A DNA stretch of 64,000 nucleotides from Lachnospiraceae bacterium (lineage in GTDB: Bacteria > Bacillota > Clostridia > Lachnospirales > Lachnospiraceae), in the NCBI GenBank assembly GCA_051877895.1, contig JBJEJI010000076.1, positions 3,671-67,670 on the forward strand, read 5' to 3'. The stretch's first letter is position 1. Every line of letters begins with the position of its first letter. Of the stretch, positions 11,994 through 27,640 are shown piece after piece. Both the position numbers and the translations under genes were made by a program. Below the pieces are notes generated by a model, which saw only the letters and a list, made by a program, of their open reading frames with translations, had not been told where the DNA came from and made no database searches.

Positions 11994-12017
11994 GTTTATT
12001 TTGAAATGGAGGATAAT

Positions 12018-13229
12018 ATGAAATACTCAGCTACAGAAGTAGTTCAATATATTTTAGAAGAAGATGTCAAGTTTATCAGACTTGCTTTCTGTGATATTTT
12101 CGGAATACAAAAAAACATATCAATTATGCCGGGAGAACTTGAACGTGCATTCAAATACGGCATCGCAATTGATGCATCTGCCGTTAACGGATTTGGTGGC
12201 GATGTACATTCTGATTTATTTCTCTTACCTGACCCATCAACTCTGGCAGTTTTGCCTTGGAGACCTGAGCACGGCCGTGTTGTCAGAATGTTTTGTGATA
12301 TTGTTTATCCGGACGGAAAACCTTTTGAATGTGATTCAAGAAAAATATTGATTAATGCAATACAATATGCTAAAGAAGAAGGCTATTCCTTTTCTTTCGG
12401 CTCAGAAATGGAATTTTATCTCTTTAAGCTGGATGAAGATGGCAACCCAACTTCTATTCCATATGACCATGCAGGATATATGGATATAGCTCCTGACGAT
12501 AAGGGTGAAAATGTTCGTAGAGAAATATGCCTGACTTTAGAACAGATGGGAATAAGTCCTGAAAGTTCGCATCATGAGGAAGGTCCCGGACAGAATGAAA
12601 TTGATTTCCGTTATTCCGATCCTTTAACAGCTGCTGATAATGCGGTAACCTTTTGCTCGGTTGTTAAAACCATTGCTGCCAGAAACGGTCTGTGTGCAGA
12701 CTTTTCACCAAAGCCACTTTGCAACAACCCGGGTAATGGTATGCATATTAATATTTCAGCAAAAGGGAGTACAAAAGAAGATATTCTGCCAAAGATTATT
12801 GCAGGAATACTGAAGAATATAAAGGCAATGACTGTATTTCTCAATCCTTCGGAAAATTCTTACAAAAGATTAGGAAACAACAAAGCTCCTCGCTATATTT
12901 CCTGGTCTACAGAAAACCGTTCACAGCTTATAAGAGTACCTGCTGCACACGGCGAATATAAACGTGTGGAGTTACGTTCTCCCGACCCTTCTGCAAATCC
13001 TTATCTGGCTTATGCCCTTTTGATTTATGCCGGTCTTTCCGGAATAAAAGATAATCTTGATTTGCCTGAAGCAGCTGACATAAATTTATTTACTGCCGAT
13101 GCTGAAAAACTTGCAAAATATGAAACGCTTCCTGCTACTTTAACGGAAGCAACAGAACTGGCTTGTGATAGCGAGTTTATTAAAGCCTATATCCCGTCTT
13201 CTGTTATTGATACTTATTGCAAGAGATAA
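12018..13229 (+). CDS. glnA: glutamine synthetase, type I (short form)
   Basis: The ORF track gives 12006-13229. I prefer ATG at 12018 (MKYSATEVVQYILEEDVKFIRLAFCDIFG) because GGAGG at 12008-12012 overlaps the first ATG. Confidence 0.9.
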   Translation: MKYSATEVVQYILEEDVKFIRLAFCDIFGIQKNISIMPGELERAFKYGIAIDASAVNGFGGDVHSDLFLLPDPSTLAVLPWRPEHGRVVRMFCDIVYPDGKPFECDSRKILINAIQYAKEEGYSFSFGSEMEFYLFKLDEDGNPTSIPYDHAGYMDIAPDDKGENVRREICLTLEQMGISPESSHHEEGPGQNEIDFRYSDPLTAADNAVTFCSVVKTIAARNGLCADFSPKPLCNNPGNGMHINISAKGSTKEDILPKIIAGILKNIKAMTVFLNPSENSYKRLGNNKAPRYISWSTENRSQLIRVPAAHGEYKRVELRSPDPSANPYLAYALLIYAGLSGIKDNLDLPEAADINLFTADAEKLAKYETLPATLTEATELACDSEFIKAYIPSSVIDTYCKR

Positions 13230-13252
13230 ACGCTTTGGAATGGAGGATGCAT

Positions 13253-13833
13253 ATGGATTTAAAAGAACGTGTTTACAGCGTCCTTTTGGTTTCTTCAGGT
13301 GAAAAGTTCAACGATTCCCTTTTGAAATTACTTCCCGAAACCAAATATACTCCGATTCATATTGTAGATAACATCAGTGCCGCCAAGCGTATAGTACTGG
13401 AAAGGTTCTACGATTTTGTAATCGTTAACACCCCTCTTCCTGACGAATTTGGCACACGTTTTGCCATCGATGTATGTAGCGAAAAGGGAACTGTTGCCCT
13501 TCTTCTGGTGAAGAATGACATGTACGGCGAGACCACTGTCCGTGTTGTAAATTATGGAGTATTAACTTTACCAAAACCAATATCCGTTCCCATGATTTCT
13601 CAGGCACTTGACTGGATGTGTTCTACCAGAGAACGACTCCGTAAACTGGAGAAAAAATCTTTGACTATAGAAGAAAAAATGAATGAAATCCGTCTGGTCA
13701 ACAGAGCTAAATGGATTCTGATTGAATCTCTCAAAATGACCGAAGAGGATGCTCATCATTTTATAGAACGGCAGGCAATGGATAACTGCACTACCAAAAA
13801 GGAAATAGCTGAAAATATAATTAAAACCTATTC

Positions 13834-13837
<4 letters not shown>
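13253..13837 (+). CDS. ANTAR-domain response regulator (NitR/AmiR-like RNA-binding antiterminator)
   Basis: The ORF track gives 13217-13837. I prefer ATG at 13253, 6 nt after GGAGG. It has an N-terminal receiver-like domain and a C-terminal ANTAR signature (IRLVNRAKWILIESLKMTEEDAHHFIERQAMDNCTTKKEIAENII). Confidence 0.85.
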
Positions 13838-15715
<1,878 letters not shown>

Positions 15716-15900
15716 TTAAAAGTAATTCGTTTCTTTTTCTCACAAGTGTTATTTTTACATAAAGAAGCATTTTTTTCAAGCATTATTATTCTTTTTTTAT
15801 GCTTTTTGTGAACCACATCCTAAAAAGTCAAAAAAGTACACAACCACGGGAAGCTATTTTTGCTTTAAAGTACAGACAATCTGTGTTATAAAATAAGTAA

Positions 15901-15928
15901 GGGCATGGAAACAAATATCTCCATGCCC
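15901..15928 (-). terminator. intrinsic terminator after the beta-helix protein gene
   Basis: Minus strand reads gggcatggagatatttgtttccatgccc followed by a T-rich tail. Confidence 0.7.
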
Positions 15929-15940
15929 TAAAATGATTAA

Positions 15941-17893
15941 TTATAATTCTTCACCGGTGCGGGTATCTTCATACAATGAACTATCAATATCACTGTTCAT
16001 GTTACCTCTCATGCCGTCATGCATTCCACCATGCATACCGCCATTCATGCCACCATTCATGCCGCTGCTACCATATGATGTAATTCCGCTTTCCAGTGTC
16101 AGTGTGGCAATTTCACTTCCTCCGCTGTATGTGCCACCGTTTTCCAAAACACTTTCAAAAGCTTCACTATAAGTTCCACCGGAGAGAACAGTTACCACAT
16201 CTCCCTCATTCATGTCAGGAGTAATCAGTGTAAAGTGGTTATAATTCTTTGCGGCCTCAAAACAGTACAGATAATCTTCGGATTGCACACAAACAATATC
16301 TCCTGCAGATAAGTTCTGTGTCAGTGTAACATTAACTCCTGTAACCGCACAACTGCTTGGTATCATAGCCATGCCGCTCATATCCATAACGAGCAGTGTT
16401 CCCGACTTGAATTCAAAGCCTGAAGCATAATCCAGTCCTCCGTTTCCGCTGTTTGCAGGACCATATATGATAACACTTCCGCCATCCATATAGAGATTTC
16501 CGTTTGAATCAAGTCCGTCACCGCCGCAATCTATAAAAATATTGGAATTCTCAAGACGAACAAAGATCTCGTAATCACTTTCAGTTATGGTGGTCTGATT
16601 TCTAACAGAATCTGCTGCATTCTGTCCATCCTGAGGCATCATGATTCCCTCTTTCCCGTCAGGGAGTGTCATTTCTCCATCCGCACCGCCAGGAGGCGTC
16701 ATGTCCCCGTCCATGCCGTCAGGAAGTATCATTTCTCCATCCGCACCGCCAGGAGGCGTCATATTACCTTCCATGCCGCCCTGCTGGAATTTTCCACCCT
16801 GCATAGGGTCTTTGCCACCCATGCCATTATCAAAGAACTGGTTGCCACCAAAATCCCATTCATCCGATGCACCGTTTGTAGCATTTATGGCATCATCATC
16901 AGAATATATGGTCACGTCGCAGCCGGTAAGGGTTATCTGCCAGCCTTCAATTCCTTCGTTGGATTCTTCCACATATATGGCTGCATTCCGGCACATAATT
17001 GCTGCATCTGCATGAATTCCATCATCTCCGGAAGCAAGTGTATAGGAGCCTGCCGTAAGGAAAATATTTCCATTGCTGTGAATAGTATCATCCTCAGACT
17101 CTGCATTAATCTCAGAACTGTCTGCAACAATTTTGTCTTTTCCAAGTATTGCTTTTCCCTTTGCCCATATATCCAGCTTTGCATCTGCAATGTAAAGAGC
17201 ATCCTTACCGCTTATTCCCTGTTCACAGTTACCATTTACCGTAAGCTCTCCCGTACCACAGATTAACAAATCTGATTTGGAATACAGACAGGCATTAGGC
17301 ACAAGGTCCGCCTCTGCCGAATAATCATCGGAATAATCATATGTTGTACCGTCTGTAATGGAATTTACGGTTCCTTCCGCAAGTACTATTGTCAGCTTTG
17401 CCGCCTTATATGCGTATATTGCACTACTATATGAGCATGTAATATCCGCACCGCTTAATCGTATATAAACCTCTTCATCCTTGGCATCAATTAAAATACG
17501 TCCTTCTGCCAGTGTGCCCGAGATGTCATACTGTCCGCCATCCAGAATAATAATATCGTTTCCGGATATTTTCACTCCATCTCCTTCTACAGTTGCCTGT
17601 GAAGGATTTTCCGCATTTCCAAACGCAATCGTTGTGGTGCGTACTGATTCATCCCATTTATAGCTTTCTGTTTCTTCCATTTCGTCTGCCGGCTCAATTA
17701 CCGTTTGTGTATCCTGAGTAGTATCAGAAGCGGTATCCTCCGAACCGGTCTGATTAGTATCAGAAGTTGAGTTTTCTGAGCCTTTCTGACTGTTTTCGTT
17801 CTCATCATCGCTAAATATAACGAAGGCACCTACAATAACTGCCAGAAGAACAATAATGACTACTATCATAGCCAGTTTAATATTACGTTTCAT
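15941..17893 (-). CDS. membrane-anchored repeat protein with a Cthe_2159-like carbohydrate-binding/parallel beta-helix region and Met/His/Gly-rich repeats
   Basis: The ORF track gives 15941-17929. I prefer M13 (MKRNIKLAMIVV...) after GGAGG. It has one N-terminal TM helix, repeated DDxIHx/DGIHAD-like motifs, a 20-aa tandem repeat GGADGEM(I/T)LPDG..., and a C-terminal GMNGGMNGGMHGGMHDGMRGNMN. Confidence 0.7.
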   Translation of the reverse strand: MKRNIKLAMIVVIIVLLAVIVGAFVIFSDDENENSQKGSENSTSDTNQTGSEDTASDTTQDTQTVIEPADEMEETESYKWDESVRTTTIAFGNAENPSQATVEGDGVKISGNDIIILDGGQYDISGTLAEGRILIDAKDEEVYIRLSGADITCSYSSAIYAYKAAKLTIVLAEGTVNSITDGTTYDYSDDYSAEADLVPNACLYSKSDLLICGTGELTVNGNCEQGISGKDALYIADAKLDIWAKGKAILGKDKIVADSSEINAESEDDTIHSNGNIFLTAGSYTLASGDDGIHADAAIMCRNAAIYVEESNEGIEGWQITLTGCDVTIYSDDDAINATNGASDEWDFGGNQFFDNGMGGKDPMQGGKFQQGGMEGNMTPPGGADGEMILPDGMDGDMTPPGGADGEMTLPDGKEGIMMPQDGQNAADSVRNQTTITESDYEIFVRLENSNIFIDCGGDGLDSNGNLYMDGGSVIIYGPANSGNGGLDYASGFEFKSGTLLVMDMSGMAMIPSSCAVTGVNVTLTQNLSAGDIVCVQSEDYLYCFEAAKNYNHFTLITPDMNEGDVVTVLSGGTYSEAFESVLENGGTYSGGSEIATLTLESGITSYGSSGMNGGMNGGMHGGMHDGMRGNMNSDIDSSLYEDTRTGEEL

Positions 17894-17928
17894 AATATCC
17901 TCCATTTCCTGCAGGCCGGAGTTCAACA

Positions 17929-18606
17929 TTAAATGGCATTTTCATCCACTTCCGGTCTTCCAAGCATTACTTCCAGATTTCCGTTTCTTTCCCTTATTGC
18001 ATCAAGAAATTCTTTCTGCTTATCTGTATTTTTCAGAACAATCTCATATTTAAGCTTATACATGCTGCCCATATTTGTGGTTCTGACCTTACAAAGCTCT
18101 GCATTCTTTGTATACTCTGAAAAAAGATCATCAAAGATTTCTGTATAATCCAGATTTTCCGGAATAACAATGGTGAGAGTCTTTACATTCTCTGCCGGAG
18201 TTCCCAGACCCATTGTAAGATATAATATGGAAAGCAGGGAAACCACTACAGTAAAAAGAATTGCCACTCCAATGTATCCTGTTCCGCAGCAAAGACCGAT
18301 TACCATGGCAAAGAAAATGCTGCCGATTTCCTTAGCGGTTCCCGGCTGGGAACGAAATCTTGTCAGACTGAAGGCTCCCGCCACTGCAATTCCGGTACCG
18401 ATATTTCCGTTTACCATTAATATTATAATGGTTACCATTACGGGAAGCAGGGAAAGTGTAATCACATAACTCTGAGAACATTTTGTTCTGTACATATGTA
18501 CCAGAGCAATACAAAGTCCCAGAATCAATGCAGTTACAAAACACAGAAGAAAACTTGTAAAATTAATTCCTGTAGCACCTATTACCGAATTTAATATTTT
18601 ATCCAT
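17929..18606 (-). CDS. DUF4956-like polytopic membrane protein with a C-terminal soluble domain
   Basis: 225 aa with 4-5 predicted TM helices followed by an ~85-aa hydrophilic domain. The family assignment is from memory of the usual VTC-DUF4956 gene pairing. Confidence 0.65.
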   Translation of the reverse strand: MDKILNSVIGATGINFTSFLLCFVTALILGLCIALVHMYRTKCSQSYVITLSLLPVMVTIIILMVNGNIGTGIAVAGAFSLTRFRSQPGTAKEIGSIFFAMVIGLCCGTGYIGVAILFTVVVSLLSILYLTMGLGTPAENVKTLTIVIPENLDYTEIFDDLFSEYTKNAELCKVRTTNMGSMYKLKYEIVLKNTDKQKEFLDAIRERNGNLEVMLGRPEVDENAI

Positions 18607-18630
18607 TTATTATTAATCCTCCTCAGTTAC

Positions 18631-19332
18631 TTACTTTAGGTAAAATGTTTTGTATGCCATTCCATACTTAGAAAAAGATACGGGATATATCTGAAGTTCT
18701 TCCAGAATTCTGACAAATGACAGTGGCAATGAAGTACATGTCTTAACTTCCATAAGCACCTGTCCATCTGTAAAAAGTCTTTTCCCATCCGGTGTATCAA
18801 AAAATGTAATGTTATCCGTTCTCCATTGTATGTCAAAGTCAAAGGTCAGTCTTACATTTCTGTCATTTTCCAAAACGTAAGAAAGTCTTTTATAACTCAG
18901 ATACATTGCCGGCACAAGGTTTCCATAATACCTTACAAACCATGCCAGTTCCCTTGCAATCTGGGAGTCCGGTTTATCCGGCGGATTAGCAAGAAATTCC
19001 TGAGCCCTGACTACATTCATTTTTTCTCTTCGTTTATAAACAATTCCGTTGTACTTTTTCTTGATTTCCAGATAAGCATCGCTTTCCGGTGTAACCCGGT
19101 TATAACACCGTAGTCTGAGTTTTTCCTTATAAACCGGCTTATCGACAGACTCCCTTATGAGCCTGTAATTCGGGGTATCATAGTAAATGTTCTGAACCAT
19201 ACAGCTAAAATATTCATCCGGTATTAAAGCCGTGCCAAGCTTCTCTTTTAAGTTACGGAACTGCTCAGCCGTAAGCAGATACTTTCTTTCGCATCTTTTA
19301 AAAATTCTTATATCACTCATTTTGTCTGCCAC
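18631..19332 (-). CDS. VTC-domain (polyphosphate polymerase-like, triphosphate-tunnel) protein
   Basis: 233 aa. The FKRCERKYLL N-terminus and alternating K/R/E beta-strand pattern (YLEIKKKYNGIVYKRR, LMEVK) are typical of CYTH/VTC tunnel folds. The start is uncertain (GTG at 19332 or ATG at 19320). Confidence 0.7.
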   Translation of the reverse strand: MADKMSDIRIFKRCERKYLLTAEQFRNLKEKLGTALIPDEYFSCMVQNIYYDTPNYRLIRESVDKPVYKEKLRLRCYNRVTPESDAYLEIKKKYNGIVYKRREKMNVVRAQEFLANPPDKPDSQIARELAWFVRYYGNLVPAMYLSYKRLSYVLENDRNVRLTFDFDIQWRTDNITFFDTPDGKRLFTDGQVLMEVKTCTSLPLSFVRILEELQIYPVSFSKYGMAYKTFYLK

Positions 19333-19383
19333 AAATCCTTGAAGGTACTCTTCGGATTTCCATCTTTCCTACTGTGTATCTGT

Positions 19384-19432
19384 ATAATAAAGTATGAAAC
19401 TAAAATTTAGTTAATGTTTTACCTAATGTTTA
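19384..19432 (-). promoter_or_regulatory. promoter of the VTC operon with three ~11-bp direct repeats (TAAACATTAGG TAAAACATTAAC TAAATTTTAGT)-9 nt-TATTAT
   Basis: Read directly on the minus strand. The proximal box and its 9-nt distance to the -10 hexamer match the response-regulator promoter at 21426-21451. Confidence 0.5.
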
Positions 19433-20719
19433 CTTAAAATTTACACGAAAAAGTATACTTTTACAATCCTCTGTTTCCACATTTATAGACATATTTTTAT
19501 GAGAAGCAACAATTGCCTCTGCCACAGAGAGTCCGATTCCGCTTCCGCCGGTTTCTCTGCTTCTGGATTTATCGATACGATAAAATCTTTCAAACAGTTT
19601 TGGCAATTCATCCCTGTTAAAACTATGGCAGGTGTTATATATTTCCAGTGTAGTATTTTTATGACCACTTTTCAGGCTGACACAGATTTTACCCTTTTCG
19701 TTAACATATTTAACTGCATTGTCCATAAGTATGGAAATAAGCTGTCTTACACCTGCCTCATCTCCATTAAAAAGAATTCCCTCCTCAAAGCTGCTTTCAA
19801 AAGTAACCCCTTTATTTTCTGCCGGTGTTTTAAAGGACAGTGCCACATCTGCTGCGGCATCACTTAGATTGAATTCCTCGGTAACGAATTTAATGCGGTC
19901 CTCATCCATTTTTGCAAGATAAACCATATCATTTACCAGCTTTGTCATTCTTCGGGTCTGTTTTTTAATGCTGTCTGTCCATTCATTTTTTCCTTCAGTC
20001 AGTTCAAGCACCTCAAGATTTGCCAGAATAATAGTCAGTGGTGTCTTTAATTCATGACTGGCATCGGTAATAAACTGCTTCTGCTTTGCATTACTTTCCA
20101 CAACAGGCTTAACCACTTTTTGGGAAAGAATACTCAGAATAATCACTTCAACCACAAGGCTTATAAAAGCCACTGCAACGGAAATCATCAAAAGCTCCCT
20201 GCAGCCTGTATATTCCTTGGAACAATCCAGATAGACAAGCATTTTTGAATCGGAAGAAGTTATAATTCGGTAATAATAATCACCGTCCCAGCCCTTTTCT
20301 TTGCCGGAAGAAATGATTTCTTCCGTAACTGAAACCGCTGTTTCTTCATTAAACCTTGCTGTATTGTCCAAATTGACTGTTGTTATATCTCCGGAAGTAT
20401 CTATTGTTGCAGTAAAAAACCTGGTTATATATTTGGTTTCCTCTGACAAATCCGGATTATGCTTTTTTATGGCATTGTTATAATCCGGCATTTGGTCTTT
20501 GTTGTCCGGTTTCATTTGAGGCATGGTTTCAAATTCCGGAATTTTTCCACCATTCATGGAAATAAGCTCAATCATTCCGTTAATTGAATCCATAGTATTG
20601 AAATAGTGAACCATATTAATCATGCCTACTACAATAACAGTAACAATAAAGATTGCCAGCATGGCAAACGATACGAAATGTATTCTTAACTGATTTAACA
20701 GTTTTCTGTTGCTCTCCAT
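19430..20719 (-). CDS. sensor histidine kinase
   Basis: The ORF track gives 19430-20827. I prefer M37 (MESNRKLL...), which sits 2 nt after the RR stop and behind AAGGAG. It has two TM helices flanking a ~140-aa extracytoplasmic domain, an H-box SHELKTPLT and an HATPase domain. Confidence 0.9.
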   Translation of the reverse strand: MESNRKLLNQLRIHFVSFAMLAIFIVTVIVVGMINMVHYFNTMDSINGMIELISMNGGKIPEFETMPQMKPDNKDQMPDYNNAIKKHNPDLSEETKYITRFFTATIDTSGDITTVNLDNTARFNEETAVSVTEEIISSGKEKGWDGDYYYRIITSSDSKMLVYLDCSKEYTGCRELLMISVAVAFISLVVEVIILSILSQKVVKPVVESNAKQKQFITDASHELKTPLTIILANLEVLELTEGKNEWTDSIKKQTRRMTKLVNDMVYLAKMDEDRIKFVTEEFNLSDAAADVALSFKTPAENKGVTFESSFEEGILFNGDEAGVRQLISILMDNAVKYVNEKGKICVSLKSGHKNTTLEIYNTCHSFNRDELPKLFERFYRIDKSRSRETGGSGIGLSVAEAIVASHKNMSINVETEDCKSILFRVNFK

Positions 20720-20721
20720 GA

Positions 20722-21396
20722 TTACTCCTTTATTTTCAGTGTATATCCGATTCCTCTGACTGCTGTTATTACAACTATACTTTCCATCTGAGCCAGTTTC
20801 TTTCTGAGTGAAGATATGGTAACCCACACAACATTTAACTCTACATCAGCATCATATCCCCAAATTTTATCTAAAAGTCTTTCTGTGGAAATCAGGGTGC
20901 CGGGCTGACTCATAAAGGTTTCCATAACCTGAAACTCCTTGTGGGTTAATCGGAAACTTCTTCCGTTTCCTGAAAGTGCGGCTGCAGATAAATTCAATTC
21001 AATATCTCCAAATCTGACATTGTCCGGCACAATATCCCCTTTACGTCTGGTAATTGCCCTCAGTCTTGCCAACAATTCCTGCATGACAAAAGGCTTTGGG
21101 AGGTAGTCATCCGCACCTGCATCCAGTCCCTCAATGCGGTCTTCCACTTCTCCTTTTGCAGTCAGAAGAATAACAGGGGTAGAAATGCCTTTCTGACGCA
21201 TTTTTTTCAACGCAGTAAGCCCATCCATGACAGGCATCATAATGTCCAGAATAATACCGTCATACTCTGTATTAACTGCATAATCATATGCATCTGCTCC
21301 ATTATACACCGCATCAACAGTATAATTATTTTTCGTCAGAACCGCCGTTAATGCACTGGACAGGTCCTTTTCATCTTCAGCCAGTAATAATCGCAT
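20722..21396 (-). CDS. OmpR/PhoB-family response regulator
   Basis: The ORF track gives 20722-21408. I prefer M5 (MRLLLAEDE...). It has a receiver domain and a winged-helix C-terminus. Confidence 0.92.
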   Translation of the reverse strand: MRLLLAEDEKDLSSALTAVLTKNNYTVDAVYNGADAYDYAVNTEYDGIILDIMMPVMDGLTALKKMRQKGISTPVILLTAKGEVEDRIEGLDAGADDYLPKPFVMQELLARLRAITRRKGDIVPDNVRFGDIELNLSAAALSGNGRSFRLTHKEFQVMETFMSQPGTLISTERLLDKIWGYDADVELNVVWVTISSLRKKLAQMESIVVITAVRGIGYTLKIKE

Positions 21397-21425
21397 ATTA
21401 GCCCCCATAACATTTATTTTTTATG

Positions 21426-21451
21426 ATTATAACATTTCTAACTAAATTTTA
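21426..21451 (-). promoter_or_regulatory. promoter of the two-component system: box TAAAATTTAGT-9 nt-TATAAT (TGt extended -10)
   Basis: Minus strand reads gtaaactgtttaagtaaaatttagttagaaatgttataat. Confidence 0.5.
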
Positions 21452-21470
21452 CTTAAACAGTTTACAAAAA

Positions 21471-21497
21471 ACCGGATGAGTTTTTTGCTCATCCGGT
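21471..21497 (-). terminator. intrinsic terminator after the HTH-cupin-acyl-CoA synthetase gene
   Basis: Minus strand reads accggatgagcaaaaaactcatccggt followed by TTTTTT. Confidence 0.8.
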
Positions 21498-21502
21498 ATT
21501 AA

Positions 21503-23791
21503 TTATCTGCCTGCTTTTTCCCTCAGCTCACGACGCTTGATTTTACCGCTTACTGTTTTAGGAAGTTCATCTACAAATTCTACAATACGTGGATATTTGT
21601 ATGGTGCAGTATGGGTTTTAACATAGGTCTGAATTTCTTTTTTAAGTTCTTCCGACGGTTCTTTGCCGCCTACAAGAACGATGGTTGCTTTAACAATCTG
21701 CCCTCTCACTTCATCAGGAACTGCAGTAATGGCACATTCCAGAACATAAGGTAGCTCCATAATAACGGACTCAATTTCAAATGGTCCGATTCTGTAGCCG
21801 GAGGACTTGATAACATCATCAATTCGTCCAACAAAGCGTATGCAGCCCTCTTCATCAAACCAAGCCTGATCACCGGTATGATAATAACCATCATGCCATA
21901 CCGATGCAGTTTTTTCTTCGTTATTGTAGTATCCGTTAAAAAGACCTATTGCATAGCCGTCTCTGTCTGCCTTTACACAGATTTCGCCTGTTTCACCTGT
22001 CTTACACTCATTTCCTTCTTCATCCAGAATGTGAATGTCATAAAGCGGATTCGGTCTGCCCATGGAGCCAACCTTTGGAGGATTTCCAATAAAGTTACCT
22101 ACCAGCACTGCAGTTTCTGTCTGGCCGTAGCCCTCCATAATCCCCAGATTTGTTGCATCCATGAAACGGTCATATACTTCAGGATTAAGTGCTTCACCTG
22201 CCGTGGAAACATGTTCCAGACCGGATAAATCATAATGGCTTAAATCCTGCTTGATTAACATACGATAAATAGTTGTTGGTGTACACAGAGTTGTGATGCC
22301 ATACTTGGCAAACATAGGCATCAAATCCTCAGCATGAAATCTTTCATAATCATAGGCAAAGAGACCTGCCTCGCACATCCATGGCCCGTAGAGCTTGCCC
22401 CACAGAGACATAATCCAGCCTGTATCTGAAATGGTAAAATGCAGACCATCAGGATTTACGCTAAACCAGTACTTTGCTGTAATATAACTTGCAAGAGGAT
22501 AGGTGTGTGCATGTACTGCAATATTCGGATATCCAGTTGTTCCGGAAGTAAACATCATAAGCATAGGATCATTTCCGCACGGAGTGTCAGGCTTTCTGTC
22601 ATAAACATCATTATGAAGAATCATTTCTCCGTTAAAATCATGCCAGCCTTCACGCTGTTCTCCTACCAGAACTTTAATCATATCCGGAAATTCCCTGCAT
22701 GCCAGTTCGGCCTGATGTGCTATGTCACCGGATGAAGTGATTACGATTGCCTTAATGCCTGCCGCCTTATATCTATAGGTAAGGTCATGTTCCAGAAGCT
22801 GATTTACAGCAGGAATTGCTATGGCTCCCATTTTATGGAGTGCAAGCATGGTAAACCAGTATTGATACTGTTTTTTCAAAATAACAAGAACCCTGTCTCC
22901 CTTTTTAATTCCGATGGATTCAAAATAATTTGCAGTCATGTTGGAATACTTCTTCATATCTGCGAAGGTAAAGGCATGGTCATTTTTCTTCTCGCCTACC
23001 CACATCAGAGCAGTTTTATTCGGACATTTATCTGCCAGCTTATCAACGATGTCAAAAGCAAAATTGAACTTTTCAGTGTTTTTAAAAGTAACCTTTTTCA
23101 GTGCACCCTTTTCATCATCTTCAGTTTCAATATACTTATCGGATACAGTAGCCTTCTTTCTTTCAGCCTTGTACTGCTCAATATTGGTTTCATGGACAAC
23201 ATAGGAATTATCATCCGGCGTCGGTTTGATTACAATGGCATAAATTACACAGTCTTTTCCATCCAGTGCACGATTGGAGTGAGGAATGCCGGAATTATAA
23301 TAAATAGTATCTCCCGGAGAAAGAATCTCGACCTTGTCACCAAGCTGAATCATCATACGGCCTTTTACAACAATATCAATCTCATGTCCTTTGTGGGAAG
23401 AAAAATGAACTTCTTCGTCATCTGTATACGGAATGGTAACATAAAACGGCTCTGCAAGCTTATTTTTAAAATCCGGAGCAAGGTTTAGATACTCAAAACC
23501 TGTTCTTCTTGTAATGGGAAGTCCCTCACCTTTACGGGTTACGGTATAGAGAGAAAGTGTTGCACTCTCCCCTTCCAAAAGGTCTTTAATGTCCACACCA
23601 AAAACATTGGCACATTTAAAAATAAAAGTAAAATTAAAATCGGACTGTCCCTGTTCGAGAATGTGGTATTCTTCCTCCGTCACACCTGTTTTTTCCGCCA
23701 TCTGTGCTTCAGTAAGCCCCGCAATTTCTCTGGCAGCCTTAATTCGGGTTGCGATTTCCAGTAATTCTTTGTCAACAATCTTCTTATTCAT
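21503..23791 (-). CDS. fusion protein: XRE-family HTH + cupin domain + AMP-forming acyl-CoA synthetase (adenylate-forming enzyme)
   Basis: Single 762-aa ORF. Residues 1-70 form an HTH_3-like domain (ATRIKAAREIAGLTEAQMAEKTGVTEEEY). Residues ~110-190 form a cupin (GHEIDIVVKG...GDTIYYNSGIPH). Residues ~235-762 form an ANL enzyme (TSGTTGYP, YGQTE, GYYHTGD, SGKIKR). There is no internal Met between the domains. Confidence 0.85.
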   Translation of the reverse strand: MNKKIVDKELLEIATRIKAAREIAGLTEAQMAEKTGVTEEEYHILEQGQSDFNFTFIFKCANVFGVDIKDLLEGESATLSLYTVTRKGEGLPITRRTGFEYLNLAPDFKNKLAEPFYVTIPYTDDEEVHFSSHKGHEIDIVVKGRMMIQLGDKVEILSPGDTIYYNSGIPHSNRALDGKDCVIYAIVIKPTPDDNSYVVHETNIEQYKAERKKATVSDKYIETEDDEKGALKKVTFKNTEKFNFAFDIVDKLADKCPNKTALMWVGEKKNDHAFTFADMKKYSNMTANYFESIGIKKGDRVLVILKKQYQYWFTMLALHKMGAIAIPAVNQLLEHDLTYRYKAAGIKAIVITSSGDIAHQAELACREFPDMIKVLVGEQREGWHDFNGEMILHNDVYDRKPDTPCGNDPMLMMFTSGTTGYPNIAVHAHTYPLASYITAKYWFSVNPDGLHFTISDTGWIMSLWGKLYGPWMCEAGLFAYDYERFHAEDLMPMFAKYGITTLCTPTTIYRMLIKQDLSHYDLSGLEHVSTAGEALNPEVYDRFMDATNLGIMEGYGQTETAVLVGNFIGNPPKVGSMGRPNPLYDIHILDEEGNECKTGETGEICVKADRDGYAIGLFNGYYNNEEKTASVWHDGYYHTGDQAWFDEEGCIRFVGRIDDVIKSSGYRIGPFEIESVIMELPYVLECAITAVPDEVRGQIVKATIVLVGGKEPSEELKKEIQTYVKTHTAPYKYPRIVEFVDELPKTVSGKIKRRELREKAGR

Positions 23792-24498: not shown

Positions 24499-25167
24499 TT
24501 ATTTCTGAGCCCTTATAAGTCCATCCTCAATTCTGATAATTCTGTTCGCCCTCTCTGCAACTTTTGGGTCATGTGTAATAAGAATTATCGTCTTTTCCAT
24601 TTCATTTATCCGGTCAAAAATATCCATAATTTCCTGCCCGGTTCCACTGTCTAATGCACCTGTTGGCTCATCTGCCAGTATTAGCTCGTTTCCGGAAGCG
24701 AGAGCTCTGGCTATTGCACAACGTTGCTGCTGACCTCCCGAAATATGTATGGGAAGCTTTTTTGCGAGATCGGAAATACCGGTCAGTTCCAGTTTTTCCT
24801 CTACAATCCTTTTTCGTTCCCTTGACGACAATCCTTTAGAAAGAAGAGGCATTTCCACATTTTCAAACACTGTATAATACTTCATAAGTGCAAAATTCTG
24901 AAATATAAAACTGACATGATTTTTTCTGAATTCATGAAGCTGATTTTCCTTCAGCTGATCCACTCTTATGTCATTGTAATAATATTCACCGGCGGTTGCC
25001 CTGTCCATTCCGCCCAGGATATGTAGCAAAGTTGATTTACCTGAGCCGGATGCACCCATAACTGCTATGTATTCTCCGTTTTCAATCTTTAAATCCACCC
25101 CTTTTAAGGCTTCCGTTTTTACTCCATCATTATCGTAAATCTTTACTATTTTTTTAACTTCTAACAT
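24499..25167 (-). CDS. ABC transporter ATP-binding protein (MacB/LolD/FtsE-like), module 1
   Basis: The ORF track gives 24499-25263. I prefer M33 (MLEVKKIV...), which makes a TAATG overlap with the upstream permease. Walker A GASGSGKST, signature SGGQQQR, Walker B ILADEPT. Confidence 0.92.
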   Translation of the reverse strand: MLEVKKIVKIYDNDGVKTEALKGVDLKIENGEYIAVMGASGSGKSTLLHILGGMDRATAGEYYYNDIRVDQLKENQLHEFRKNHVSFIFQNFALMKYYTVFENVEMPLLSKGLSSRERKRIVEEKLELTGISDLAKKLPIHISGGQQQRCAIARALASGNELILADEPTGALDSGTGQEIMDIFDRINEMEKTIILITHDPKVAERANRIIRIEDGLIRAQK

Positions 25168-26450
25168 TATTCTGTTTCTCCTGCAAGCATAGTTGTAACC
25201 GGTGTTTTTTTCAGAATCATTAACGGAATTAACGATGATATAATTATCATCACTATTCCACATACTATCATAACCGGAACAGACACACCCAAATATATGC
25301 TTTTTGCCAAAGCATCTGTTTCCACATCAACAGCTTCCTGTCTTAACAGGAACAACAATACCGCTCCCGCCACAGGCAGGGCTGCTATGGTTCTAATACT
25401 GTTCTGAAACCAAAAAGCATATACCAAATCCTTTTTTGTCGCTCCACTGGACAGCCATACCCCAAAATCTCTCGTATGCGACAACAGAGTGATTGTCTGA
25501 CTACAAATCACCATAACCAATGCTGATATTCCCAACAACATACTGAGTTCTGCAAAGGAATCAGCAACTTTACTGTCGTTTTTTTCGGCCTTACTTACTA
25601 TTGCATCCATACTGTATACAGAAATATCTGCGGAATATTGTTCTGCGAGAGTATAGAAGTTTTTTACCACTTCATCATATTTTCCTTTTTCACAGACAAA
25701 CATTCCGTCCTGTTTACCCGAATCCACAACAATAACAGAGTACTCCGGCATATAAAATCCTACACTGTCAGATGTTTTTTGAAGCAGTACTCTTTCATCC
25801 ATCATTCTGGTTGAAGAAGAGTAAAACCCGGCAATTAAATATTCTGCCAAAACATTACCTTCCCGGTCATAAGAATAATACTGCTCTCCCATTGTGACTG
25901 CATCCTTAAACTCTTCTGAAAGATACAAAAGCCATGTTCTTTCATTTATATCATATTCTGTAGGAGCTTTTCCCTCCTGAAGGTCTATATTCATTGCCTG
26001 CCATATACCGGCACCAACAATTGTCGTCTGAAAACATCCTTCATATTCATTTTCATATTCCTGATCCGTGATTCCTTTAAAATGTCCCTTCTGAAGATTT
26101 CCTAAAAATGCCAGGTCTTTAACGAAAAAAAACTGATTACTTTCCATTGTTCCGATTCCCATGACCCCATTTACATTATTCAAGGCATCAACAAATTCAT
26201 CATACCGGTCTGTGTCCTCTACAAGAATTGTTCCAATCTGTTCTGCCGAAACCTTTAATCCCGTTTCTGCTCTCTTTCGATAATCATTTAATGAATATTG
26301 AGTGTATGCTAAATATCCAATTAAAAACATGGTTACCGCCAACAGGAAAATACTGAGTACAAATCCTTTTCCCTCATGAACACACAAATCACGGGCAATA
26401 CGAAATTTAACTCGATTTTTCACTTTATTCCTCCGAAGCTTAATACTCAA
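25167..26450 (-). CDS. FtsX/MacB-type ABC permease (4-TM, large extracytoplasmic domain), module 1 permease B
   Basis: 427 aa with an N-terminal TM, a ~240-aa loop and three C-terminal TMs. Confidence 0.8.
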   Translation of the reverse strand: MSIKLRRNKVKNRVKFRIARDLCVHEGKGFVLSIFLLAVTMFLIGYLAYTQYSLNDYRKRAETGLKVSAEQIGTILVEDTDRYDEFVDALNNVNGVMGIGTMESNQFFFVKDLAFLGNLQKGHFKGITDQEYENEYEGCFQTTIVGAGIWQAMNIDLQEGKAPTEYDINERTWLLYLSEEFKDAVTMGEQYYSYDREGNVLAEYLIAGFYSSSTRMMDERVLLQKTSDSVGFYMPEYSVIVVDSGKQDGMFVCEKGKYDEVVKNFYTLAEQYSADISVYSMDAIVSKAEKNDSKVADSFAELSMLLGISALVMVICSQTITLLSHTRDFGVWLSSGATKKDLVYAFWFQNSIRTIAALPVAGAVLLFLLRQEAVDVETDALAKSIYLGVSVPVMIVCGIVMIIISSLIPLMILKKTPVTTMLAGETE

Positions 26451-27576
26451 GTTTCACATCATCTGCTATTCCGGTGTAAAATCTCCGCATGAGAGAAATT
26501 GCCAGAACCAAAGCACATACAACAAACAATATAGCCAATGCACCCAGTCCATATAGAAATACTGTTGGGAAATAATACCCCTTCCACCAGACATACACAA
26601 TTATTTCAAACACCCATGCACAGAATGCACCGCAAAGCAACACTATGGCCACCTCTTTAAACATTTCTACGAAAATGCCGGAACGGCTACGTCCGAAAGC
26701 CCTGCATATTGCAATATCTCTTCTTTTTCTTTTTGTATAGAGTTCCAGGACACGAATCAGATTCAGTACACAGAAAAAGAAGGCTGATATATAAATTACA
26801 ATTTTTATTGATTCAATACCGGAAATCTCAACATCATTGTTGTCTTCAGTCTCAGTTATTTTCTCAATGCTTAATAAAGACAGGCTGTCTGCTGTCTGTT
26901 CTAAAAACAATTCATCTTTTTTTACTTCATGATTATTACTGCCCAGACAAATAACCAGCGACTCATCTTCTGCTCCGGAATCATATTTTTGATACAAAAT
27001 GACATCCAGGATTTCCTTTTGAGACTGTCCGGACAATGTGTCATAGGAAAGAAGAAACATTTCATTTTCTTCTATTCCTTTTGTTTCCATGATTCCGAGA
27101 ACCGGAAGCTCATCCAGAAAAACTTTGATGATATTGTCTTCCTTTATGTAATCACTATATGCATTTCCTACGTATACGCCTGTTTTATCAAAATCATAGT
27201 CACCACTTTGGAGAGGATATGGCACCGGTTCGTTAAAAGCCAGATAAACCTGAAACTGCTCTTTACCGCCTCCATTGACTTGTCCCGGAATCTGACATAC
27301 AAAAACATTGGATTCCGATTTTTCCGTAGCTTCAAAAAGACTGCCTAATTCTTTTTCGACTGCATTACGACTGTCCTCCTTAATGTCCTCGGTAACATTA
27401 AAGTTTACTTTATAGTACGAATGATAAATATAGGTTTCCCCGGCGTCTGTTTCCATTTTCGCCTTGGAAAACCTATTCATAATACCGACTATATTCATGC
27501 AGATAAGCATAAATACTACAGTTGTAATAAACAATAAAAACTGTGGGAGAATATCTCTCTTTATTCTTCGCAACAT
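26440..27576 (-). CDS. FtsX/MacB-type ABC permease, module 1 permease A
   Basis: The ORF track gives 26440-27594 (TTG). ATG at 27576 (MLRRIKRDIL...) is preferred, but the start is uncertain. Same 1+3 TM topology. 11-nt overlap with the next permease. Confidence 0.78.
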   Translation of the reverse strand: MLRRIKRDILPQFLLFITTVVFMLICMNIVGIMNRFSKAKMETDAGETYIYHSYYKVNFNVTEDIKEDSRNAVEKELGSLFEATEKSESNVFVCQIPGQVNGGGKEQFQVYLAFNEPVPYPLQSGDYDFDKTGVYVGNAYSDYIKEDNIIKVFLDELPVLGIMETKGIEENEMFLLSYDTLSGQSQKEILDVILYQKYDSGAEDESLVICLGSNNHEVKKDELFLEQTADSLSLLSIEKITETEDNNDVEISGIESIKIVIYISAFFFCVLNLIRVLELYTKRKRRDIAICRAFGRSRSGIFVEMFKEVAIVLLCGAFCAWVFEIIVYVWWKGYYFPTVFLYGLGALAILFVVCALVLAISLMRRFYTGIADDVKLEY

Positions 27577-27640
27577 ATTTTTCCCTACCAACAATTTTTT
27601 CTATTAAACGGAGTGCCTTGGTTTAAAATATCATTGTATG

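Follow-up and report, generated by a model that had tools for sequence, protein, structure and literature searches.

Characterised VTC enzymes couple the synthesis of polyphosphate to membrane transit (bioRxiv 10.1101/2023.01.27.525886), and a 2025 review still assigns VTC to eukaryotes and PPK to prokaryotes as the respective enzyme types (PMC12526157). VTC-type genes have also been listed in bacteria. The Clostridium perfringens locus NELoc-2 (CP4_0460-0466) comprises genes for a VTC protein of 230-232 amino acids (aa), a cytoplasmic-membrane protein of 222-226 aa, CotH and a hypothetical protein of 685 aa (PMC2879425), and the VTC gene and its membrane neighbour were down-regulated together in vivo (PMC4983038). 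That neighbour is annotated as 'tubulin/FtsZ'; from its size, location and context we infer that it is a DUF4956 protein. Whitfield and colleagues listed cotH, a 'poly-phosphate polymerase' gene, DUF4956 and DUF4832 as pel accessory genes, with a role stated to be unknown (bioRxiv 10.1101/768473 = PMC7112168); in Streptococci and Clostridia these genes are contiguous with pelDEA(DA)FG, and Bifidobacteria have a variant (bioRxiv 10.1101/768473). Here we describe a five-gene module, in which a two-component system (TCS) precedes genes for a VTC-type tunnel protein, a DUF4956 membrane protein and a Cthe_2159-family beta-helix protein, from a 64-kb stretch of Lachnospiraceae bacterium DNA (GCA_051877895.1, contig JBJEJI010000076.1, positions 3,671 to 67,670), hereafter the window. 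The cassette is real, conserved and functionally undescribed. A preliminary description made from the letters of the window had presented it as the best candidate in the window for an undescribed system, which stands as far as function is concerned, since none is assigned in the literature, and falls for the genes as such, which were already listed in NELoc-2 (PMC2879425) and in pel loci (bioRxiv 10.1101/768473). We tentatively favour, at somewhat less than even confidence, the reading that the operon specifies a signal-inducible VTC-type polyphosphate polymerase at the cytoplasmic membrane, which would combine synthesis with export.

The module and its boundaries are as follows, with coordinates given as positions in the window and the minus strand being that of the module:

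21471..21497, minus strand: intrinsic terminator of the upstream gene (10-pair stem with 6 G-C pairs, then TTTTTTG); upstream boundary of the module
20722..21396, minus strand: OmpR/PhoB-family response regulator, 224 aa; an alternative ATG at 21408 gives the longest open reading frame (ORF)
19430..20719, minus strand: sensor histidine kinase, 429 aa (HisKA + HATPase_c)
18631..19320, minus strand: standalone VTC-type triphosphate-tunnel protein, 229 aa (PF09359); a GTG at 19332 would give 233 aa
17929..18606, minus strand: DUF4956 membrane protein, 225 aa (PF16316)
15941..17890, minus strand: Cthe_2159-family beta-helix protein, predicted to be membrane-anchored and extracytoplasmic, 649 aa (PF14262, PDB 4peu)
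15900..15929, minus strand: strong intrinsic terminator (13-pair stem with 6 G-C pairs and a T-rich tail); downstream boundary of the operon

The five genes thus run head to tail from 21396 or 21408 to 15941 between two intrinsic terminators, of which the downstream one lies 12 nucleotides (nt) past the beta-helix stop codon. The regulator and kinase genes are separated by 2 nt, and the kinase ATG has an AAGGAG ribosome-binding site; the kinase and VTC genes are 109 nt apart, and this spacer contains a promoter-like site. Gaps of 24 nt (VTC to DUF4956) and 38 nt (DUF4956 to the beta-helix gene) follow. The preliminary description had given gaps of 2, 24 and about 35 nt, which were right, and had placed five same-strand genes in the families named above; every one of these calls, made by eye, was verified with Pfam. 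Independent gene calls on other contigs carrying an identical VTC protein gave the same sizes of 224, 429, 229 and 225 aa, the beta-helix gene being cut there by contig ends. A scan for terminators between the two boundary terminators found short, weak stem-loops only and no terminator between the kinase and VTC genes, and an Rfam scan of 15500-21700 at E <= 0.1 returned no riboswitch or leader RNA match.

Based on profile searches, the tunnel protein (residues numbered in the 233-aa frame) matches PF09359 over the full length of the profile, residues 13-231 covering positions 2-235 of 235 (E = 9.5e-36, 123.9 bits against a cut-off of 23). It has neither an SPX domain nor a membrane segment, and the VTC domain is the only one found by Pfam. 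Its AlphaFold2 model is of high quality (predicted local distance difference test score, pLDDT, 92.3; predicted template modelling score, pTM, 0.88), and in a Foldseek comparison with solved structures ranks 1-13 were all occupied by the tunnel domains of yeast Vtc4, Vtc3 and Vtc2 (E 2.7e-12 to 5.7e-10, TM-scores 0.62-0.69), followed at lower ranks, from E 1.8e-8, by YgiF and CYTH triphosphatases and class IV cyclases. The triphosphate- and Mn2+-binding residues of Vtc4 that are needed for polyphosphate synthesis are K200, R264, R266, K281, Y359, R361, E426, S457 and K458, and K458 is the one residue replaced in the inactive Vtc2/3 (bioRxiv 10.1101/2023.01.27.525886). Profile alignment to Vtc4 chains (the numbering of the 5iiq chain being offset by +3) placed K17 of the window protein opposite K200, R73 opposite R264, R75 opposite R266, K91 opposite K281, Y147 opposite Y359 and R149 opposite R361; all six are invariant across 25 homologues. 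Two further invariant motifs, M194-E195-x-K197 and S219-F-S221-K222-Y-G, sit where E426 and S457/K458 are expected, and the first of them stands, at low score, opposite 'MEIK' of Vtc3. PDB profile searches with the C-terminal 100 and 44 columns returned only spurious DARPin or aminotransferase hits or VTC matches on the N-terminal side; from the motifs we infer that E195, S221 and K222 correspond to E426, S457 and K458. The tunnel protein is thereby largely established as a member of the VTC family with a polymerase-type site, and the family assignment first made by eye is borne out by the full-length profile match and by six of the nine Vtc4 site residues having been aligned.

A protein of this fold could also be something other than a polymerase, namely a triphosphatase, polyphosphatase, NTPase or cyclase, which would supply phosphate or a signal, or energise DUF4956 as an ion or metal transporter. 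We consider this distinctly unlikely. Most solved bacterial triphosphate-tunnel proteins are hydrolases or cyclases, and such proteins are found here among the lower-ranked fold matches; however, the 13 best matches all belong to the VTC polymerase family and include no hydrolase, and the lysine expected at the position of Vtc4 K458, which is lost in the non-catalytic Vtc2/3, is invariant. Further points on both sides come from the two other effector proteins.

The DUF4956 protein matches PF16316 (E = 2e-15, 57.4 bits against a cut-off of 30.6), and its model (pLDDT 78.8) contains five membrane-length helices, at residues 16-38, 45-64, 67-83, 91-109 and 112-132, with a beta-alpha-beta-beta-alpha-beta (ACT-like) domain modelled after helix 5. 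Because Lys and Arg residues, across 35 homologues, concentrate in loops 1 and 3 and past helix 5, with none in loops 2 and 4, the distribution supports a predicted N-out, C-in topology, in which an invariant R-F-R-S-x-P-G loop and the C-terminal domain would be cytoplasmic; the latter carries the invariant residues K198, R205 and R207. In fold searches the C-terminal domain alone was matched, to ACT and other ferredoxin-like regulatory domains. The idea, implied in the preliminary description, that this protein is the counterpart of the yeast VTC channel found no support: at E <= 10 Pfam gave DUF4956 and a weak MgtC match only, and Foldseek no match to chains of the VTC complex, so that kinship with the channel was set aside. 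A functional analogy between the two is possible. Membership of the MgtC/SapB family (PF02308) was likewise rejected, the Pfam match being at E = 0.36 and 11.6 bits against a cut-off of 31.4. MgtC-type proteins resemble DUF4956 in overall layout, with five transmembrane helices and a C-terminal ACT-like domain, and in nothing more. This layout, with the weak Pfam match, would suit a non-polymerase tunnel protein energising a transporter; the comparison with E. coli YhiD, of the MgtC family, speaks against it (hhalign probability 0.1%, in a low-powered comparison with a single sequence on one side).

The last gene of the operon encodes a protein whose residues 122-352 match PF14262 (Cthe_2159; E = 1.5e-51, 175.7 bits) and residues 115-325 match PDB 4peu at 1.8e-22. 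Because its N-terminus consists of a short basic segment followed by one hydrophobic helix, the bulk of the protein is predicted to lie outside the membrane. After the Cthe_2159 helix come a Gly/Met/Pro/Asp-rich insertion and then a region with weak resemblance to further beta-helix turns, and the C-terminus is a tail of the GGM(N/H) type, GGMNGGMNGGMHGGMHDGM. Gly/Met(Phe)-rich low-complexity segments, sometimes with His, recur in many orthologues, and anchoring is by a membrane anchor or, in one orthologue, by a lipoprotein signal. The Met/His-rich segments suggest metal binding, which would accord with the ion or metal transporter considered above.

The conservation of the cassette was assessed in 80 loci, collected with a profile of VTC homologues (A1) from one-genome-per-species contigs, with neighbours identified by six-frame phmmer searches with the window proteins. 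DUF4956 lies immediately 3' of the VTC gene in 74 of the 77 loci with enough sequence, in assemblies labelled as Clostridia, Bacilli, Actinobacteria, Bacteroidales and spirochaetes, and the arrangement is far beyond chance; the adjacency, being near-obligate, strongly implies that the VTC protein would need DUF4956 for its function. A beta-helix homologue follows DUF4956 directly in 45/67 loci by phmmer, and Pfam scans of the loci seemingly without one revealed 4 further, divergent Cthe_2159 proteins, as well as CotH kinases in L002 and L011 and a phosphodiester glycosidase in L048. Overall, Cthe_2159 follows the VTC-DUF4956 pair in about 70% of loci. It is by far the commonest family among 112 co-directional downstream ORFs (47 ORFs, against 3 for NAGPA and 2 for each of several other families), and therefore the operon normally ends after the Cthe_2159 gene. 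Where the third position is taken by another gene, this encodes a CotH protein with Fn3-associated or chitobiase C-terminal N-terminal domains, or NAGPA. The co-conservation of the three effector genes, as first proposed, was thus recovered in other genomes.

A 100% identical protein, P0001, assigns the window to a Lachnospiraceae metagenome-assembled genome. Carriers are labelled mostly as Lachnospiraceae, Oscillospiraceae/Ruminococcaceae and other Clostridia, with further labels from Bacilli (Carnobacterium), Coriobacteriia, Bifidobacteriaceae, Bacteroidales and spirochaetes; the VTC-DUF4956-Cthe_2159 trio is also present in the named, presumably cultured, Roseburia inulinivorans DSM 16841, Bittarella massiliensis and Holtiella tumoricola. 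The families are large: VTC comprises at least 5,834 clusters at 90% identity, and DUF4956 at least 7,516 clusters at 90% and 5,514 at 50% identity (E <= 0.001). Nearly all of the 150 best-scoring DUF4956 representatives are 170-265 aa long. P0299, P0363 and P0309 were examined as Rosetta-stone fusions and rejected, for they combine a partial VTC with a partial DUF4956 domain (in one of them, positions 35-175 of the VTC profile and then 33-108 of that for DUF4956) and are probably deletion or assembly chimeras.

In the closest genome relative (L001:753-3755, corresponding to window positions 14615-18606), DUF4956 is followed directly by the gene for a Trp/Tyr-tRNA synthetase. The beta-helix gene is missing between them, and is therefore an insertion or deletion between related genomes. 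Some loci depart from the usual order in other ways. At L092:6318-10792 the regulator and kinase genes are followed by a 125-aa DUF4956 remnant, consisting of the last helix and the C-terminal domain, the VTC gene having been deleted; an intact 636-aa lipoprotein-type Cthe_2159 protein is encoded after the remnant. In 3 loci a gene for a NAGPA-type phosphodiester glycosidase, an extracytoplasmic enzyme acting on phosphate-linked substrates, stands right after DUF4956, and at L048:11420-12421 such a gene sits before the Cthe_2159 gene.

These patterns bear on where the product would act. Since the third gene is consistently extracytoplasmic and the pair is linked to exopolysaccharide loci, the product is suggested to act outside the cell. 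A different possibility, which we regard as unlikely, is that polyphosphate remains intracellular, with DUF4956 tethering the enzyme or controlling it allosterically through the ACT-like domain (for instance in granule nucleation or in phosphate or metal buffering), and that the beta-helix protein is a separate surface carbohydrate-binding protein or adhesin sharing the regulon. The site residues support polymerase chemistry here too, the fold search showed no pore in DUF4956, and the C-terminal domain has ACT-like fold matches, such domains being typically ligand-binding regulatory modules. Gains and losses of the beta-helix gene are independent of the VTC-DUF4956 pair, and Pfam calls Cthe_2159 carbohydrate-binding. 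However, the third gene almost always encodes an extracytoplasmic protein (Cthe_2159, CotH with extracellular-type domains, or NAGPA), and the pair also joins exopolysaccharide export loci, a pattern hard to square with a purely cytoplasmic product; the VTC enzymes characterised so far couple synthesis to membrane transit.

The regulator and the kinase contain the domains expected of an OmpR/PhoB-type TCS (Response_reg 6.5e-30 and Trans_reg_C 3.7e-21; HisKA 8.4e-17 and HATPase_c 2.3e-18) and form a coupled pair by virtue of the 2-nt gap and ribosome-binding site described above. Two transmembrane helices of the kinase surround an extracytoplasmic domain of ~150 aa, with HisKA directly after the second and no HAMP domain detected by Pfam. 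The regulator falls under every NCBIfam equivalog cut-off, the best being RppA (226 bits against 250), and the identity of the pair as PhoB/PhoR was rejected (PhoB 173.7 bits against a cut-off of 296.2; PhoR 154.8 against 334.2). A regulator-kinase pair adjoins the VTC cassette in 30 of 62 loci, upstream and co-directional as in the window in 18, divergent in 10 and downstream in 2. The outer domain is conserved among kinases linked to VTC, its motifs being EETP[YF]xTR[YF]F, YKY and DC. In a reverse search of metagenome contigs with the sensor domain, VTC-DUF4956 adjoined the kinase gene in 16/80 loci, which is about one third of the sensor-domain loci with at least 2 kb of downstream sequence. 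The same sensor family stands at L100:6328-11660, and at some 25 near-identical human-gut metagenome loci, upstream of genes for an ABC ATPase with a DrrA-like C-terminal domain and two ABC-2 permeases in place of VTC, these loci representing one redundant lineage. The sensor type is thus shared with at least one other envelope-related output, and the view that it is dedicated to this cassette had to be abandoned, the more so as an adjacent TCS is found in only about half of the VTC operons.

This sharing raises the further possibility of a role in envelope stress or antimicrobial defence, in which a surface polyanion would soak up cationic peptides or metals and the cue would be an envelope-active compound and not phosphate status. 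Such a role concerns physiology and is compatible with synthesis and export of a polymer. In its favour are the ABC ATPase and ABC-2 permease genes that adjoin kinases with the same sensor in other gut bacteria, the failure of regulator and kinase to reach the PhoB and PhoR cut-offs, and the Met/His-rich tails of the beta-helix protein; the case is purely contextual, however, and the ABC-2-linked group is a single redundant lineage, so that we hold this role to be highly doubtful. As for an anti-phage defence system, PADLOC gave no match for VTC or DUF4956, and otherwise generic kinase and receiver matches and one weak match of the beta-helix protein (PD-T4-6, E = 0.0057).

New in the present analysis are direct-repeat boxes found before the regulator and VTC genes, and kept upstream of VTC in other genomes. 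A 17-nt box of the form TTAAGT-N5-TTTAGT occurs both in the 62 nt that precede the regulator gene and in the 109 nt between the kinase and VTC genes:

21440..21456, minus strand: direct-repeat box TTAAGTAAAATTTAGTT, ahead of the regulator gene; 8 nt further on is TATAAT at 21426-21431, preceded by TG (extended -10)
19398..19414, minus strand: second box TTAACTAAATTTTAGTT, between the kinase and VTC genes; 8 nt further on is TATTAT at 19384-19389; proposed regulator-dependent promoter of the VTC operon

The degenerate pattern has two exact matches in the 64-kb window, a count that is circular, the pattern having been written from the same two sites. The two boxes share 16/20 bases at an equal distance of 8 nt to the -10 element, and a non-circular shuffle of both spacers gave p ~0.02. 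In other genomes, two half-sites with an 11-bp period lie upstream of VTC immediately before a -10 box. The strict pattern TT[ACT]AG-N5-7-TT[ACT]AG occurs in 28/79 VTC upstream regions, against 0.7% of 150-nt background windows. With a relaxed pattern that also demands a -10 element, VTC upstream regions match in 22/35 loci that have a TCS next to the cassette and in 12/44 that have none (34/79 overall), and regulator upstream regions in 13/34, the background being 0.6%.

The boxes also track the clades of the regulator. Regulators with the recognition helix NVVWVYIS are accompanied by TT[AT]A[AG]G repeats, those with NNLEAY.SFVRKK by TTTAAT-N5-TTTAAG, and those with NNVEAYISF by TTTCAG repeats, in 5/7 loci against 0/13 in the NVVWVYIS clade (Fisher p = 0.0014, uncorrected for phylogeny). 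In L029, L030, L060, L064, L072 and L077, where the TCS is divergent from VTC and the regulator helix is NNVEAYISF, the shared spacer contains TTTCAG-N5-TTTCAG and not a TTTAAG-type repeat.

Direct repeats overlapping the -35 region close to a -10 element are the typical layout of PhoB-type activators. Because regulator-type boxes lie upstream of both transcription units, the sequence supports expression of the VTC, DUF4956 and beta-helix genes under the adjacent TCS, in agreement with what had been proposed at the outset. Many related loci have, as read by eye, a terminator-like hairpin with a T-run after the kinase gene and ahead of the box. The view that the five genes could only be transcribed together was rejected, for the box and -10 element in the spacer, together with these hairpins in related loci, argue for a separate regulated promoter. 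The simplest reading would be an autoregulated TCS operon and, for the three effector genes, a promoter that depends on the regulator. A separate VTC promoter appears compatible with control by the TCS, which suggests that transcription of the effector genes apart from the TCS genes would not speak against such control.

The following sequence of events would account for the module. The outer domain of the kinase would sense an envelope or extracellular cue and lead to phosphorylation of the OmpR-type regulator, which in turn would bind half-sites 11 bp apart (TTAAGT/TTAACT ... TTTAGT) overlapping the -35 regions of both promoters. Binding at the regulator's own promoter and at the promoter in the kinase-VTC spacer would then activate the three effector genes. 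The tunnel enzyme, soluble and 229 aa long, may build polyphosphate from ATP with a divalent metal, in the manner of Vtc4, while docked on the basic cytoplasmic face of a DUF4956 oligomer, for which the invariant RFRS loop and the ACT-like domain are candidate contacts. DUF4956 would replace the transmembrane channel of yeast Vtc1/3/4 and pass the nascent polymer to the outside of the membrane, a role as conduit that is proposed by analogy. There, the anchored Cthe_2159 protein may bind, organise or use the polyanion, probably with the participation of Ca2+, other metals or matrix polysaccharide; a CotH kinase or a phosphodiester glycosidase would take the place of this protein in other genomes.

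Synthesis of a phosphate polymer and its export to the cell surface, as the preliminary description had suggested, fit the evidence because the Vtc4-type site residues appear intact, the membrane partner is obligatory and the third genes are extracytoplasmic. Several observations weigh on the other side. Foldseek matched the transmembrane part of DUF4956 neither to the yeast VTC channel nor to any other solved channel, and profile searches yielded no sequence alignment with Vtc4 for the C-terminal third of the tunnel protein, where three of the site residues are expected. Among the best 150 representatives from an exhaustive DUF4956 profile search, no protein was convincing as a full-length fusion of VTC with DUF4956. 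The cassette can do without the beta-helix gene, which is absent in L001 and which L092 keeps after loss of VTC, while Pfam describes Cthe_2159 as carbohydrate-binding and not phosphate-binding. The sensor family also accompanies ABC-2 exporter genes, and full-text literature searches turned up neither a study of the function of VTC or DUF4956 proteins from bacteria nor data on their activity, localisation or interactions. Whatever the case, we still prefer synthesis coupled to export, with the confidence expressed at the beginning.

The more far-reaching proposal, which we find somewhat doubtful, is that the cassette represents a third, VTC-type bacterial polyphosphate route built for secretion, in which the polymer would pass from the tunnel polymerase through the DUF4956 oligomer to the surface under the switch of an envelope-sensing TCS. 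The beta-helix, CotH and Pel-associated proteins may then use the polymer as a matrix polyanion, as a metal or peptide sink, or as an extracellular phosphoryl donor. VTC-type tunnel enzymes with apparently intact site residues are common in gut and rumen Firmicutes and beyond, where they are paired with a different membrane protein than in yeast and usually with a surface protein as well. No enzyme other than VTC is known to link the making of this polymer to its passage across a membrane. The cassette is the best available lead to a third, membrane-coupled bacterial route to polyphosphate. If the pair does export polyphosphate, it would constitute a new bacterial secretion route for an inorganic polymer, could account for the unexplained accessory genes in Pel biofilm loci and in C. 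perfringens NELoc-2, and would have implications for how the eukaryotic VTC complex arose in evolution. With the regulator boxes the model becomes testable.

The genes that flank the module are unrelated to it. Upstream, a single ORF of 762 aa (21503-23791, minus strand) encodes HTH_3/HTH_19 and Cupin_2 domains in one protein with a complete acyl-CoA synthetase of the AMP-binding type; an independent contig also has it as a single gene, and such a regulator-enzyme fusion is unusual. Downstream lies a Trp/Tyr-tRNA synthetase gene. At 24499-27594 (minus strand), an ABC ATPase gene is followed by two large membrane ORFs, one with an FtsX-type permease domain and the other without a Pfam match. 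At 12006-13837 (plus strand), a glutamine synthetase gene overlaps the next gene, which encodes a C-terminal ANTAR RNA-binding antitermination domain; these look like a nitrogen-control pair.

Compared with described systems, the module shares with the Gram-positive pel loci a VTC-DUF4956 pair linked to an extracytoplasmic partner and to surface-polymer production, but its partner is Cthe_2159, it has a TCS of its own, and there are no pel genes near it in the window. In NELoc-2, CotH and not Cthe_2159 directly follows the pair, and no adjacent TCS is listed (PMC2879425). The beta-helix domain matches Cthe_2159 of Clostridium thermocellum (4peu; PF14262), whereas the window protein as a whole is twice as long and differs in its predicted membrane anchor, its Gly/Met/Pro/Asp-rich insertion and its GGM(N/H) tail. 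With PhoB/OmpR-type activation the boxes have in common two half-sites of 11-bp period that end 8 nt before the -10 element, with a copy at the regulator's own gene; unlike PhoB/PhoR, the window pair stays below the equivalog cut-offs, and the putative half-site TT[AT]A[AG]G/T is defined here alone. The established bacterial polyphosphate kinases PPK1 and PPK2 would have the same presumed product as the tunnel protein and are unrelated to it in fold. The closest likeness is to the yeast VTC complex (PDB 3g3q, 7ytj, 8i6v), with which the module shares the Pfam domain, the tunnel fold, the best structural match, the aligned triphosphate-binding residues and the pairing of a catalytic domain with a membrane component. 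It differs from that complex in that the tunnel domain stands alone, with neither SPX nor a fused 3-helix transmembrane domain, and in that the membrane partner is a separate DUF4956 protein with five transmembrane helices and an ACT-like domain, of no detectable similarity to Vtc1; control, which in yeast is exerted by inositol pyrophosphate, would here be transcriptional, through the TCS.

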